From the NCBI RefSeq assembly GCF_030384885.1, contig NZ_CP128613.1: a DNA stretch of 64,000 nt; one strand, 5' to 3'. The notes beneath the pieces were generated by a model, which saw only the letters and a list, made by a program, of their open reading frames with translations, was not told where the DNA came from and did no database searches. A program made the position numbers and the translations under genes. Positions 1,200-18,854 of this stretch are shown here, in pieces. The stretch is from Escherichia coli. GTDB lineage: Bacteria > Pseudomonadota > Gammaproteobacteria > Enterobacterales > Enterobacteriaceae. How positions within the stretch are numbered: position 1 is the first letter of the stretch; each line of letters starts with the position of its first letter.

Positions 1200-2084
1200 T
1201 TACTTTGCAATGAGATCGGGGTCAACTTCGCTTAACCGGCTTCGTTTTGACAGGTTGCCGGTCTTTCTTTTTTTCACTTTCGCCAGTTCTTCCGCAGAGT
1301 AATGCGACGCGACATCCAGCCGTCGAAGCCCCATCTTGATGTACTCACTGTTAATCTCAATACCAATAAATTTTCGCCCGCTGGCGGCGGCTACGGCACC
1401 GGTAGTAAAGCTACCGGCAAACGGGTCGAGAACGATATCGCCTGGGTTGGAAGAGGCGAGAATAATGCGTTTCAGTAAGGCTTCCGGTTTTTGCGTCGGG
1501 TGATTCTCATATTCATCCATCAAATAACGCACGCGCGGAAAATCCCAGACGTTACCCGGTACTTTTTGATGATTGTAAGGCTGTGGAGGATTTTTGCGAT
1601 AATCGATCAACGCGCGCTGCGATCCGGTTTTGGCTTCTACCAGAATAGCATCACCGTTGAACGTGTAGTTCTTTGCGTCTTTCACCATCATCAGGATGGG
1701 TTCGTACATGGAGCCGTAGTGTTTTTTCGCCTGCACTCCAGAACTGTCATATGACCAGACGATGCGACTTTTGATGGTAAAAAGCTTGCGGCACTGGAGA
1801 TCGATAAAGGGCATGTTTTCCGTGCTGTTCATGATGTACATGCTGCCCTGCTTTTTCAGAACGCGGTGGCACTCTGCAATCACTTCAAACAGCCAGTCGA
1901 TAAACAGATCTTCTTTCCAGGCTTCGATCAGACCATCAAAATTTTTACCGATGTTATACGGTGGGTCGGCAAAGATTAGATCTACACTTTCGGCGGGGAT
2001 CTTTTTAAGTTCGGTTAATGCATCACCCTGGATGATGGTCTTTGCTTCATTACCAAATCGGGTCGGTTCACATCCTGTTCTCAT
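1200..2084 (-). CDS. yhdJ: DNA adenine methyltransferase YhdJ
   Basis: ORF 1200..2090; N6-adenine methyltransferase motif DPPY (IFADPPYNIG) and SAM-binding region (VLDPFAGSFTTG); start taken at the third codon to give 294 aa. Confidence 0.85.
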   Translation of the reverse strand: MRTGCEPTRFGNEAKTIIQGDALTELKKIPAESVDLIFADPPYNIGKNFDGLIEAWKEDLFIDWLFEVIAECHRVLKKQGSMYIMNSTENMPFIDLQCRKLFTIKSRIVWSYDSSGVQAKKHYGSMYEPILMMVKDAKNYTFNGDAILVEAKTGSQRALIDYRKNPPQPYNHQKVPGNVWDFPRVRYLMDEYENHPTQKPEALLKRIILASSNPGDIVLDPFAGSFTTGAVAAASGRKFIGIEINSEYIKMGLRRLDVASHYSAEELAKVKKRKTGNLSKRSRLSEVDPDLIAK

Positions 2085-2109
2085 GGTCACTCCCTTTGTG
2101 ACACTTATA

Positions 2110-2147
2110 AAAAAGGCGCTTCCCCATGCCGAGTAGCGCCTTTTTAA
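2110..2147 (-). terminator. Rho-independent terminator downstream of fis
   Basis: GC hairpin aggcgct...agcgcct flanked by A/T runs (aaaaaggcgcttccccatgccgagtagcgcctttttaat), just beyond the fis stop. Confidence 0.6.
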
Positions 2148-2169
2148 TCAAGCATTTAGCTAACCTGAA

Positions 2170-2466
2170 TTAGTTCATGCCGTATTTTTTCAATTTTTTA
2201 CGCAGCGTACCACGGTTGATGCCCATCATCAGCGCAGCACGGGTCTGGTTACCACGGGTGTATTGCATCACCATGTCCAACAGGGGCTGTTCTACTTCAG
2301 CCAGTACCAGCTCATAGAGGTCATTCACATCCTGACCATTCAGTTGAGCAAAATAGTTCTTCAGTGCCTGTTTAACCGAGTCACGCAGGGGTTTTTGGGT
2401 TACCTGATCCTGAGAGTTAACGGTAGAAACGGTCAGTACGTCAGAATTTACGCGTTGTTCGAACAT
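2170..2466 (-). CDS. fis: nucleoid-associated protein Fis
   Basis: 98 aa; the sequence [98 protein letters not shown] matches Fis by recall. Confidence 0.97.
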
Positions 2467-2491
2467 AGTTCTGTCAGCTCTTTATTTCTGT

Positions 2492-3457
2492 TTACGCAAA
2501 ATTTTCGAAGTATGCCTCCAACGCCTCCAGCTGTTCGCTGGCATCCTCAATGGCGTTGAATGTGCGCCGAAACTGGTCATTTGGAGCGTGTTCCTGGAGA
2601 TACCAGGAAACGTGTTTACGTGCAATTCGGTACCCTTTTGCCGGACCATAAAAGTCATGCAGTTCCCGAACGTGCGCGCAAAGCAAGCGCTTAACCTCTG
2701 CCAAAGGCAGCGGGGGCAGCAACTCCCCAGTGTCCAGATAATGCTGGATTTCCCGAAAGATCCAGGGTCTTCCCTGAGCTGCGCGGCCTATCATCAGGGC
2801 ATCCGCCCCTGTATAGTCGAGCACAGCTCTGGCTTTAAGCGGGTCAGTAATGTCGCCATTCGCGATAACCGGAATGGAAACTTTCTGCTTAACTGCCCGA
2901 ATACTGTCGTACTCAGCTTCTCCATTGAACAAACAGGCGCGTGTTCGGCCATGAATGGTCAGAGCCTGAATGCCACAGTCTTCAGCCAGTTGGGCAATCT
3001 CTTCGCAGTTACGGTGTTCCGGCGCCCAGCCGGTGCGAATCTTCAGGGTAACAGGAACGTCCACTGCATTGACGACCTCGGTAAGGATCGATTTAACGAC
3101 ATCCGGGTACTGCAAGAGGGCTGAACCTGCGAGCTTGCGATTCACTTTTTTAGCCGGGCAACCCATATTGATATCAATAATCTGGGCACCGCTTTCCACG
3201 TTAATACGTGCTGCATCTGCCATTTCTTTCGGATCGCTACCAGCAATTTGCACGGTGCGAATACCGGGTTCATCAATGTGCACCATCCGTAAACGAGATT
3301 TGTCGCTTTCCCAAACCTGTGGGTTAGAAGACATCATCTCGGATACTGTCAATCCGGCTCCCATCTCGTAGCACAACGTCCGAAAAGGTCTGTCTGTAAT
3401 GCCAGCCATGGGCGCTGCGATCAGGCGATTTCTGAGCTGATATTGTCCGATGCGCAT
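2492..3457 (-). CDS. dusB: tRNA-dihydrouridine synthase B
   Basis: 321 aa TIM-barrel Dus family ([26 protein letters not shown]...); directly upstream of fis as in the dusB-fis operon. Confidence 0.95.
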
Positions 3458-3785
3458 GAGTTAAGAAATGACCATACTGTGACTGCAAGGCGGCGTATAT
3501 TACGCATTTTTTGCACGAGATGAAAGGCCAAACTTTGACCAATCCTCTGAGATGGATCAAAGAATTGCATTTAAAATGAGCTTAGCGCGATAATTACTCA
3601 TAAAAATCATTATATTAGAAAATAGTGACTAAAATTTACACTCCAAGAAATTTGAGTAAGTTCTCAATTTTTCTTTATGAATGAAAATTTTGGCACGCAA
3701 ATCTGCGTAAATAATCGGCAAATTAACGTGCCTTTTGTGACCTTGCTCGCACTTCGCCTTGCGTCACCATACGGCGATGCGAAGG
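3458..3785 (-). promoter_or_regulatory. dusB-fis promoter / upstream regulatory region
   Basis: 328 bp intergenic region upstream of dusB with an A/T-rich stretch (about 3560-3700); known from the literature to carry the Fis-autoregulated promoter. Individual sites not mapped here. Confidence 0.5.
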
Positions 3786-16400: not shown

Positions 16401-16871
16401 TTACTCGATGACGACCAGCGGCTCGTCAAATTCTACCGGTTGTCCACTTTCGACCAGAATTGCTTTCACGGTACCGGATTTGTCCGCTTCGATCTGGTTC
16501 ATCATTTTCATGGCTTCAACGATGCACAGGGTATCGCCCACGTTGACTTTCTGACCCACTTCGATGAACGCTTTTGCGTCCGGGCTTGGGGTGCGGTAGA
16601 AAGTACCAACCATCGGGGAACGTACGATGTGACCACTGATTTCCGCTGCTGCTGGCGCTTCCATGGAAGGAACGGTCGCCGGAGCGGCTGCGTTAGATTG
16701 AGCTGGCTGCTGCATCATTGGTGCAGCGTAAGCTTGTTGCATCACAGGGAAACTTGCGGCAGGAGCTGCACGGCTGATGCGTACTGACTCTTCGCCTTCG
16801 GAGATTTCCAGTTCGGAGATGCCTGATTCTTCAACCAGCTCGATCAGTTTTTTAATCTTACGAATATCCAT
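16401..16871 (-). CDS. accB: biotin carboxyl carrier protein
   Basis: 156 aa; Ala/Pro-rich linker and biotinylation motif [10 protein letters not shown]. Confidence 0.95.
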
Positions 16872-17879
16872 GAGTGGGTTCCGTACTCTTTGTTTAGTGT
16901 GATTGTGACAGGCGTTTCACCGCCGTCTGTAAAGCGTATGCCCCGACAGCTGTATGCATAGCGATAAATTCCAGCAGGCCGGGACGCCGGTCTATTTTGC
17001 CCCAGAGTGTCAATGTTAGACTTGACGGACATTGTGCAGCGATCTGCTGCTATCCTCCGGCAAAAAACAAAATATACCTTCGTTGCGCCAATGTCACCTT
17101 TTCCGCAGCGCAAAAACTGCGTCAGGGAGGACGAGGTCGCACATTATAACGATTTCGTAGCAATTGGCAGCTAAATACTGGTCTTATCAGGGAAGATAAT
17201 CAACAGCTAACATGTAAATAACCTTCAACACCGTGTAATTTGCAACAAGCCGCACAATTCACGAAATTAGCGCTATCGTCGACGGAACTTCTTATAACGT
17301 AAGGCTAAAAGCTGTAAAGCCAGCCCTGCGAAGATGAGGGGCTGCAATGAGATAATCTTCACAGACCACAAATAATGTAGGGATGTCAGGATCGCGGCAA
17401 GATAGACGACATTACGCAGCGGTTGCTGGTGATTACTCAATTTTCACTGCATCGTCTGGATAAACGTCAATGCTAAAGCACGCAAAATCAACAAACTGAC
17501 AATGCTCAGCATCAAATAGCTTTGAGTGGTTAATTTATAATCAAATAAAATCAGATTATTCACCCCTGGGATCCGAGTTAAGGTACAGATTAAGCGTAGC
17601 GTCACCCAGGCAAAGCGCCTTAAACCTAACAGACGACGGGACGTATCAATAATGACTATTTAGTGGAGTATCAAGGGGGTTTTCCACCGTTTGGTGACCC
17701 GTATCAATGCGCATCAATTTATGGTCAGTCGAAATCATGACTTTCCAGTTTGGATGATGTTGTACAACTTCATGACCAAGATGTTCGACGAAAGCTGTCC
17801 GGCTAACCGCTTTTCCCGTTAACCGATTGAATAATGATTTCAAAATGAGTTCCCTCTCTTATTATTCCCTGCTAAATGG

Positions 17880-18854
17880 TTAGTTAACCTTCACCAGCGT
17901 GCGACCCTGGATCTGGTTATTAATGATGGCCTCGGCAAATTTCGGTGCCTCTGCCAGAGATATCTCTTTTGCCGCCTGGGTATAGAATGATTCCGGTAAA
18001 TCGGCGACCAGTCGCTGCCAGGCTTGTGCGCGGCGTGCTGGTGGCGTCATCACTGAATCCACCCCCTGTAAACGGACATTACGCAGAATAAATGGCATGA
18101 CCGTGGTTGGCAGAGTAAAACCACCCGCCAGACCACAGGCCGCCACGCAGCCGCCGTAATTCATTTGCGCCAGCACTTTCGCCAGCACTTTGTCGCCAAC
18201 GGTGTCAATTGCCCCAGCCCAGAGTTGTTTTTCCAGAGGACGGGATTCGGCAAACTCATCGCGAGGGAGAATACGGCTGGCACCTAAACTTTTCAGATAT
18301 TCATGGGTACTTTCGCGACCGGAAACGGCAACGACCTGATAACCCAACTTATGCAGCAGCGCCACGGCGGTACTGCCGACGCCACCACTGGCACCCGTTA
18401 CGACAATCTCGCCGTCCTGCGGGCGAACACCGGCATCTTCCAGCGCCATCACACACAGCATGGCGGTAAAACCGGCAGTACCGATAATCATTGCTTTACG
18501 CGCGTCCAGCCCTTGCGGCATGGCAACCAGCCAGTCACCTTTCACTCGCGCCTGCTCCGCCAGCCCACCCCAGTGGTTTTCACCAACGCCCCAGCCAGTG
18601 AGTAATACGTCCTGACCGGCATGAAAACGCGGATCTTCGCTGGTGCGTACAGTTCCGGCAAAATCGATCCCAGGAATCATCGGAAAATTACGGATGATTT
18701 TTCCCTTACCGGTAATTGCCAGCGCATCTTTGTAGTTCAGGCTCGACCAGTGAACATCAACCGTGACATCGCCCTCCGGCAGGCGACTTTCGTCCAGAGT
18801 CTGTACCGATGCGAGAGTTTTGCCGTCCTGCTGTTCTAAAAGTAACGCCTGCAT
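17880..18854 (-). CDS. acuI: acrylyl-CoA reductase / MDR-family NADPH oxidoreductase
   Basis: 324 aa zinc-independent quinone-oxidoreductase-like protein (YhdH); Rossmann motif GASGGVGS. Confidence 0.88.
   Translation of the reverse strand: MQALLLEQQDGKTLASVQTLDESRLPEGDVTVDVHWSSLNYKDALAITGKGKIIRNFPMIPGIDFAGTVRTSEDPRFHAGQDVLLTGWGVGENHWGGLAEQARVKGDWLVAMPQGLDARKAMIIGTAGFTAMLCVMALEDAGVRPQDGEIVVTGASGGVGSTAVALLHKLGYQVVAVSGRESTHEYLKSLGASRILPRDEFAESRPLEKQLWAGAIDTVGDKVLAKVLAQMNYGGCVAACGLAGGFTLPTTVMPFILRNVRLQGVDSVMTPPARRAQAWQRLVADLPESFYTQAAKEISLAEAPKFAEAIINNQIQGRTLVKVN

Follow-up and report, generated by a model that had tools for sequence, protein, structure and literature searches.

The DNA upstream of accBC in Escherichia coli: a conserved promoter, a leader that appears to derive from a lost aroQ gene, and two pseudogenes

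Results

The gap between accB and acuI

The window that we analysed is a 64-kb stretch of E. coli DNA in which accB (16871-16401) and accC (16390-15041) lie on the minus strand. A gap of 1,008 bp separates the accB start codon (ATG, 16871-16869) from the upstream neighbour acuI/yhdH (18854-17880, minus strand), whose stop is at 17880; beyond acuI is csrD, on the plus strand. The interval considered here, 16872-17645, is the accB-proximal 774 bp of this gap. The 1.1 kb around the gap are 100% identical to E. coli strain 2013C-4282 and present in 5,425 of 5,426 complete genomes, and the K-12 annotation of the locus reads yhdH, yrdF', yrdE', accB, accC. We found no intact gene in 16872-17645, and the five ORFs of the interval other than a pair that matches MsrQ gave no Pfam match. 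To that extent the preliminary description, which saw no convincing coding sequence here, was right, but an MsrQ/YedZ relic at 17638-17276 makes up 363 bp, or 47%, of the interval. Read on the minus strand, the interval is very probably a patchwork of a promoter (P1), a leader derived from aroQ, a dead msrQ-like gene and a dead DUF1444-like gene. It is mostly annotated, ordinary sequence that was largely known already, and the presence of a substantial regulatory RNA is unsupported, such that both the observation and the interpretation in the preliminary description hold only in part. Our additions are minor: the leader's probable descent from aroQ, the invariance of this relic across the species, and the likely mis-definition of the Yersinia RNA Ysr190.

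The pseudogenes yrdF and yrdE

The ORF at 17646-17843 (minus strand, 65 aa), earlier treated as the nearest gene upstream, is a fragment of a pseudogene, yrdF (b4697), and is annotated as a pseudogene in K-12. It is the N-terminal part, about the first 58 codons, of a DUF1444-like gene: 56 of 58 residues are identical to the start of a 276-aa protein in strain CB7286, and the 276-aa gene is intact in both CB7286 and E. albertii. PGAP labels this gene fragment, in the strain studied here, as a 65-aa 'hypothetical protein'.

The pseudogene yrdE (b4646) occupies 17273-17638 on the minus strand; a TGA interrupts its frame at 17446-17444, and a TAG closes it at 17275-17273. Its translation corresponds to about residues 77-196, the C-terminal 60%, of the haem-binding membrane subunit MsrQ/YedZ. 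The ORFs 17605-17444 and 17440-17273 share one frame, are parted only by the TGA, and jointly match the NCBIfam profile for MsrQ (NF003831; E = 1.3e-15; profile positions 106-195 of 212). The score is 57.5 bits, below the cut-off of 130, and a full-length MsrQ/YedZ (NF003831, PF01794) would be a six-helix protein of about 200 aa. The relic is 61% identical to residues 77-195 of E. coli MsrQ and lacks the N-terminal 76 residues. His91, His151 and His164 of E. coli MsrQ are conserved haem ligands; in yrdE the first two are replaced by Arg and His164 is kept. Given the stop codon in frame, the missing N-terminal 76 residues and the His91 and His151 replacements, yrdE is a dead msrQ-like gene. Indeed, the region is annotated as a pseudogene in K-12 and, by PGAP, as a partial 'YedZ/MsrQ' pseudogene in many genomes. 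In most Enterobacterales msrP-msrQ stand between acuI and aroQ, and yrdE, the dead msrQ, is at that place; the working msrPQ of E. coli is at the hiuH-zinT locus, and its MsrQ is 78% identical to the accB-linked MsrQ of Enterobacter.

In K-12, yrdE and yrdF have the same position and belong to the same sequence family as in the window. The window carries a rare allele, which retains a 33-bp stretch between TTGATAC repeats, absent from K-12, and nearly all other E. coli differ from its yrdE by 5-20%. Global-alignment identities of yrdF and yrdE to loci outside Escherichia were disregarded, being inflated by cheap gaps against a longer target. Between the yrdE stop and the promoter block is an unassigned 71-bp stretch (17205-17275, minus strand). 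Four E. coli strains are 98.6-100% identical over it, E. albertii matches it at 87%, and other genera do so at about 55-66%. The part of the interval upstream of the transcription start, described earlier as an unexplained remainder that might carry regulatory RNA, is instead made up of yrdE and this spacer of about 70 bp.

The accBC promoter

The E. coli accBC promoter and leader were reportedly characterised by Li and Cronan in 1993 and by James and Cronan in 2004, with FadR control reportedly described by My and colleagues in 2015; the primer extension of Li and Cronan is said to have placed the promoter about 300 bp upstream. The region was correctly recognised in the preliminary description as accBC upstream DNA with a long leader, which is 263 nt, and the -10 element suggested there has also held up. 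On the minus strand, gttataatg occupies 17150-17142 and includes TATAAT (17148-17143), 272-277 nt 5' of the accB ATG; this is the real -10 box, since the same -35/-10 pair is given for a published start site at -263 and the hexamers are invariant across 45 Enterobacterales loci. This sigma-70 promoter, P1 (17143-17170, minus strand), consists of a -35 hexamer CTGCCA (17170-17165), a 16-bp spacer and the -10 hexamer TATAAT, with 10 of 12 consensus matches in our promoter scan. The scan returned five sites in the region against 2.3 +/- 2.0 expected from shuffles, a total that is not above chance, so the case for P1 rests on conservation and on the published start site. In a 454 map of 5' ends, accB has a start at -263, supported by 7 reads, with the boxes TAGCTGCCA / GTTATAAT and a spacer of 16 (Mendoza-Vargas 2009, PMC2760140, supplementary file 3). 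Since K-12 and the window have identical leaders, the published -263 is base 17134 on the minus strand, 9 nt past the last T of the -10, and this is where P1 would start accBC transcription. The position comes from one shallow data set of 7 reads, and the true start could deviate from 17134 by some tens of bases.

We assessed the conservation of P1 in 80 AccB loci, one genome per species, a sample without Salmonella, Shigella, E. fergusonii and E. marmotae. The block 17204-17134 has 78-92% identity throughout the Enterobacterales. The core of the block, about 17197-17141, can be made out in Plesiomonas, Grimontia, Photobacterium, Zobellella, Oceanisphaera and Aliiglaciecola, and P1 can be recognised in Vibrionaceae, Aeromonadales and Alteromonadales.

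The most conserved part of the promoter block is a FadR-like operator, CTGATAAGACCAG (17178-17190), which has its centre about 50 bp 5' of the start site and hardly varies between orders. It is the sole match, at no more than two mismatches, to the palindrome CTGGTCNGACCAG in the 64 kb, where 1.43 matches are expected by chance; because the match itself is no better than chance, only the position and conservation of the site carry weight. Compared with the imperfect 17-bp FadR palindrome (half-sites CTGGTC/GACCAG), the site agrees at 11 of 13 positions (10 of the 12 specified ones), and its right half is perfect. The left half equals the left half of the FadR site in an E. coli fabB probe, CTGATCGGACTTG (PMC4537474). 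FadR has been reported to act directly at the acc operons, and positively on accBC (PMC11602165). Given the weak -35 hexamer and the FadR-type operator at 17190-17178, P1 is most likely activator-assisted, and from the sequence together with the published FadR genetics we read it as a putative FadR-assisted promoter.

An apparent aroQ remnant in the accBC leader

In about 70 of 80 related genomes the promoter is followed by aroQ-accB-accC, with aroQ next 5' of accB (near-full matches in 56 genomes, matches of 122-129 aa in 13); this arrangement is found in most Enterobacterales and also in related orders. In Enterobacter and Yersinia, a type II 3-dehydroquinase ORF of 150 aa (DHquinase_II, PF01220; E = 2e-60) stands between the promoter and accB. 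The predicted distance from the transcription start to accB is 576-595 nt where aroQ is intact, 372 nt in Phytobacter, and 261-284 nt in Escherichia, Citrobacter and Superficieibacter. Against an aroQ-bearing locus (L008), the leader of E. coli gives two alignments, one on either side of a gap: query positions 79-289 match 2337-2547 (79% identity, E = 1e-47), and positions 361-441 match 2933-3012 (96%, E = 2e-31). The 5' segment takes in the promoter, the 5' UTR and the DNA to 20 nt past the aroQ ATG, with 79-85% identity to aroQ operons; the 3' segment, 81 nt with 95-99% identity to aroQ-bearing genera by blastn, consists of the last 47 nt of aroQ, the aroQ-accB spacer and the accB start.

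Read from its 5' end, the leader meets the former aroQ start at 17012-17032 (minus strand), an ATG (17032-17030) and six further codons that read MSVKSNI against MADK(L/F)HI in intact genes. The DNA alignment to aroQ-bearing loci is unbroken from the promoter across this ATG. Intact operons have GGAG as the Shine-Dalgarno sequence of aroQ; E. coli has GCAG there, and Citrobacter GAAG. In other genera some 385 nt of aroQ follow, and in their place the leader has 71 nt of filler (16941-17011, minus strand), which showed no similarity beyond that of shuffles to internal aroQ or to the equivalent stretch of Citrobacter and Superficieibacter; within Escherichia, 17011-16927 is 96% identical to E. 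albertii. The 3' end of aroQ follows at 16894-16938 (minus strand), as the last 14 codons and a TAA stop, and its 14 residues are all identical to those of Enterobacter AroQ (tblastn, E = 4e-6). From this stop to the accB ATG is a 22-nt spacer (16872-16893, minus strand) with the accB ribosome-binding region AAGAGUACGGAACCCACUC; the spacer is 100% identical in E. albertii, Citrobacter and Superficieibacter, and its core, GAGTACGGAAYC, is kept in all Enterobacterales. The two surviving ends of aroQ are in different frames in E. coli. Leader ORFs of 39 aa and 89 aa had no Pfam match, and we found no DHquinase_II frame of about 150 codons. Demonstrable aroQ in the leader is confined to a 5' stretch of 21 nt and a 3' stretch of about 45 nt.

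Because both flanks of aroQ align and the last 14 codons persist, at the aroQ position between the conserved promoter and accB, we propose that the long accBC leader is the leftover of a deleted aroQ. An ancestral promoter would have driven aroQ-accB-accC, and aroQ would then have been destroyed in the Escherichia/Citrobacter lineage, leaving the aroQ 5' UTR, the first 7 and last 14 codons and the aroQ-accB spacer, with about 385 nt replaced by 71 nt and the aroQ ribosome-binding site mutated. Since the 71-nt middle has no aroQ similarity, an internal deletion cannot be distinguished from a deletion plus an insertion. Phytobacter massiliensis has a different, partial aroQ deletion, showing that decay occurred more than once; Escherichia, Citrobacter and Superficieibacter could have either one shared aroQ loss or several independent losses. 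Compared with the aroQ-accB-accC operons of other gammaproteobacteria, E. coli has the promoter block, 5' UTR, aroQ tail, spacer and accB start in common; about 315 bp of aroQ, net, are missing, and the ribosome-binding site of aroQ has been lost. The dehydroquinase of E. coli comes from aroD instead. The literature that we searched contained no statement of an aroQ origin for the leader, and the K-12 annotation has no aroQ pseudogene.

Conservation of the promoter and leader

We compared three adjacent 344-bp queries against complete E. coli genomes. The promoter and leader (16872-17215, 344 bp) are at least 99% identical in all 5,425 matching genomes, the worst being 99.4%, and are 100% identical in 8 of 12 evenly spaced rows. 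By comparison, the accB coding control reaches at least 99% in 3,327 genomes and falls at 95-99% in 2,098; for yrdE the corresponding numbers are 2 and 3, with 5,420 genomes at 80-95%. Similarly, four E. coli strains have zero differences over the 333 bp of 17204-16872, and the same strains differ by 0.6-8% at third codon positions of acuI, accB and accC and by 10-15% in the 5' half of yrdE. Invariance of this degree, tighter than that of accB coding sequence, argues that the leader, including the 71-nt filler, is under constraint in E. coli. Nonetheless, a low-diversity block may account for part of the conservation: between E. coli and E. albertii, third positions of accB differ by 4-6%, as against 17-25% for neighbouring genes.

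Conservation between genera is uneven. The promoter block has 96-99% identity, the aroQ tail 88-97%, the spacer 100% and parts of the 5' UTR 70-73%; the filler has 47-61%, and the middle of the leader, at 47-54% between Escherichia and Citrobacter, cannot be aligned.

Ysr190 and a candidate second promoter

A search of the leader against Rfam gave no family at its gathering score. The best match was Ysr190 (RF02764, Yersinia sRNA 190), at 17069-17168 on the minus strand, taking in the P1 spacer, the -10 box and ~66 nt at the start of the leader, with 25.3 bits (E = 0.09-0.37) against a gathering score of 66. Three Yersinia loci score 95-131 bits at the same place before aroQ, where the match covers the -10 box and the initial ~70 nt of transcript. 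The E. coli sequence is therefore at the orthologous position: the first 30 model positions, which are the P1 spacer and -10 box, match almost perfectly, and the part downstream has diverged. Ysr190 would accordingly be the orthologous promoter and 5' leader of aroQ-accBC rather than a free-standing sRNA. Its boundaries and drawn structure are doubtful, because the family begins 5' of the transcription start and so includes DNA that is not transcribed from P1. A match to Rfam STnc410 (13.4 bits, 17173-17300) was put down to chance, because the model consensus lacks the invariant FadR-site sequence, which would be expected in a syntenic RNA of Salmonella.

The most conserved feature of the 5' UTR is GTGACA-17-TATTTT (17069-17097, minus strand), two hexamers with a 17-bp spacer that score 9 of 12 in the promoter scan. 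The core, TGAC and TAT-TT, is invariant in 46 of 46 Enterobacterales 5' UTRs; the two hexamers keep a constant distance although the spacer sequence varies, and the element is missing outside the Enterobacterales. It fits the pattern of a second promoter, and we regard it as a candidate, P2, with no start site on record there. It is possible, if rather unlikely, that the element is instead bound by a regulator, or belongs to an attenuator with its end at the U-run 17076-17061. In favour of this, the element is invariant in all 46 sequences, Yersinia Ysr190 is drawn with its end at this U-run, and the published E. coli starts of accB are only at -263 and -40, with none near -190 (PMC2760140). 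However, that map is shallow; the hexamers, with A2 and T6 in the second, and a distance of exactly 17 bp despite the variable spacer sequence make up a sigma-70 signature, and no G+C-rich hairpin abuts the U-run. Indeed, our scan of 16700-18000 found no terminator-like site.

Discussion

If aroQ once sat between the promoter and accB, the distance between them is a historical accident rather than a purpose-built RNA. This would give a simple reason for a long-noted oddity, a promoter about 260 nt away from accBC, and the region needs no new RNA family. What has been reported for E. coli accBC, namely the same locus with a promoter far upstream, autoregulated by AccB, regulated by growth rate and activated by FadR, is nothing different in kind from what we see in the window.

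Since both promoter and leader hardly vary within E. coli, this relic has nevertheless probably been taken over for some function in accBC expression. Candidate roles include start-site-proximal control, mRNA stability, accB translation initiation and AccB autoregulation. We put forward only tentatively the fuller form of this idea, in which the leader is a co-opted aroQ relic whose 5' UTR, tail and filler are under purifying selection stronger than that on accB coding sequence. If so, AccB, growth rate or OmrA would control accBC by way of a cis element in the relic.

An alternative possibility is that the leader is a dedicated cis-regulatory RNA (an attenuator, an AccB operator or a platform for sRNA pairing), with its structure explaining both its length and its conservation. 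We consider this unlikely. There are several reasons to entertain it: the 263-nt leader is more conserved than accB coding sequence across the 5,425 E. coli genomes, the orthologous Yersinia segment has been catalogued as a small RNA, and some hairpins recur with compensatory changes. In addition, accBC transcription is repressed by AccB, which is without a DNA-binding motif, through a route that published accounts leave unexplained (PMC11602165, PMC3896788), and OmrA overproduction lowers accBC mRNA (bioRxiv 10.64898/2026.06.26.734639).

The recurring hairpins are hairpins 1 and 3. Hairpin 1 (17104-17121, minus strand; CGCAGU-UUUUGC-GCUGCG, transcript +14 to +31) has a counterpart of varying sequence at the same position in many Enterobacteriaceae, with a mean z of -0.85 and z < -1.5 in 18 of 46; it shows one compensatory change, A-U to G-C, between E. 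coli and E. albertii, and was not recovered by RNAalifold. Hairpin 3 (16907-16927, minus strand; GACGGCG-GUGAAA-CGCC(U)GUC), in the aroQ tail 35-55 nt 5' of the accB ATG, is paired in 91% of cells over 50 distinct sequences, compared with 27-36% in slid controls. One of its pairs changes from G-C to A-U in 13 sequences and is broken in 10 of the 50, and the support for this hairpin is modest. Hairpin 2 (17036-17050, minus strand; GCAGC-AGAUC-GCUGC), at the former aroQ Shine-Dalgarno sequence, was seen in the MFE fold and the alignment, in Escherichia only. The accB ribosome-binding region is predicted to be unpaired in the centroid structure.

Structure searches and predictions of the kind that the preliminary description had called for speak against a dedicated leader RNA. 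No Rfam family reached its threshold; RNAalifold gave zero consensus pairs for 46 orthologous 5' UTRs; the MFE z-score of the leader is -1.14, with 28 of 200 shuffles folding as well; and the leader is without a terminator-like site. Moreover, the leaders of Escherichia and Citrobacter cannot be aligned in their middle, the conserved 5' UTR elements are promoter-like (two hexamers at fixed spacing over a variable spacer) and unlike paired arms, and the Yersinia family cited in its favour includes a -10 box, leaving its own boundaries and Rfam structure doubtful.

Lastly, it is very improbable that the relic aroQ ATG at 17032 opens a 62-codon uORF that runs across the accB start, ends at 16844 and tunes accB by coupling or occlusion: the frame is open in E. 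coli, as part of an 89-aa ORF (16844-17113), and also in E. albertii, where two indels cancel out, but these species are so closely related that an open frame tells little, a hairpin holds the mutated former Shine-Dalgarno sequence, the frame is shut after 9 codons in Citrobacter, and the ORF has no Pfam match.

The places to seek AccB autoregulation are the ~100-nt former aroQ 5' UTR and the last ~55 nt before accB, which are candidates because they are conserved between genera. Suppression of synonymous-site variation at the 3' end of aroQ is mild, at 0.89 versus about 1.25 bits, and is similar to that at codons 61-70.

Apparent gene relocation, and decay, upstream of accB

From a comparison of the yrdE pseudogene (window 17273-17638, minus strand), an MsrQ fragment, with msrPQ of K-12 (1979-3619 of the K-12 msrPQ locus, L085), the msrPQ operon of Escherichia appears to have moved. 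A dead copy of msrPQ sits at the ancestral position between acuI and aroQ in Escherichia, and the functional Escherichia msrPQ adjoins hiuH and the hprRS two-component genes. The 5' half of yrdE (17444-17638) diverges by 10-15% among E. coli strains, roughly double what the adjacent genes show at third codon positions, and neutral decay is probably the explanation. This fast-diverging half adjoins the 333-bp stretch that carries the accBC promoter and leader (17204-16872), in which there are no differences, an unusually sharp contrast.

Between acuI and the msrQ fragment, E. albertii and about one in ten E. coli genomes (3 among 30 rows taken at even spacing) have an intact DUF1444-like gene of 276 aa (2438-3268 of comparison locus L002; 1308-2117 of the E. 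albertii locus, L005), with a terminator hairpin of its own. Genomes with the intact gene have a shorter yrdE than K-12; therefore, neither arrangement is simply derived from the other. At 17668-17707, the window retains 33 bp between two TTGATAC direct repeats, and a third copy of the repeat lies at 17643-17649. These 33 bp are missing from K-12 and most E. coli, and the allele of the window was found at an identity of at least 99% in only two genomes. It looks as though the common E. coli lineage lost the 33 bp by repeat-mediated deletion.

The accB leader and its surroundings in related species

Matches to Ysr190 (Rfam RF02764), catalogued as a Yersinia sRNA, score 95-131 bits at three comparison loci (L039 and L061, both 2380-2481; L041, 2238-2339). 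Since they cover exactly the -10 box of the aroQ-accB promoter and the ~70 nt with which the transcript begins, this "sRNA" is apparently the leader of an mRNA, with its 5' end drawn in the wrong place.

At third codon positions, the accB genes of E. coli and E. albertii differ by only 4-6% (window 16401-16871 against L005), as compared with 25% for acuI and 16-19% for accC. This similarity reflects either very strong selection on synonymous sites or exchange of a leader-accB block between the two species.

Phytobacter massiliensis (L024, 2629-3001) has a partial, independent deletion of aroQ, with 372 nt between the predicted transcription start and accB; a tblastn search with AroQ found no match at this locus. 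In Yersinia artesiana, Serratia oryzae, Hafnia and Edwardsiella (L041, L042, L045, L050), 60-150 additional nt separate aroQ from accB, and the start-to-accB distance is 637-731 nt. Yersinia artesiana and Serratia oryzae have a TATAAT-containing sequence directly 5' of the accB ribosome-binding region.
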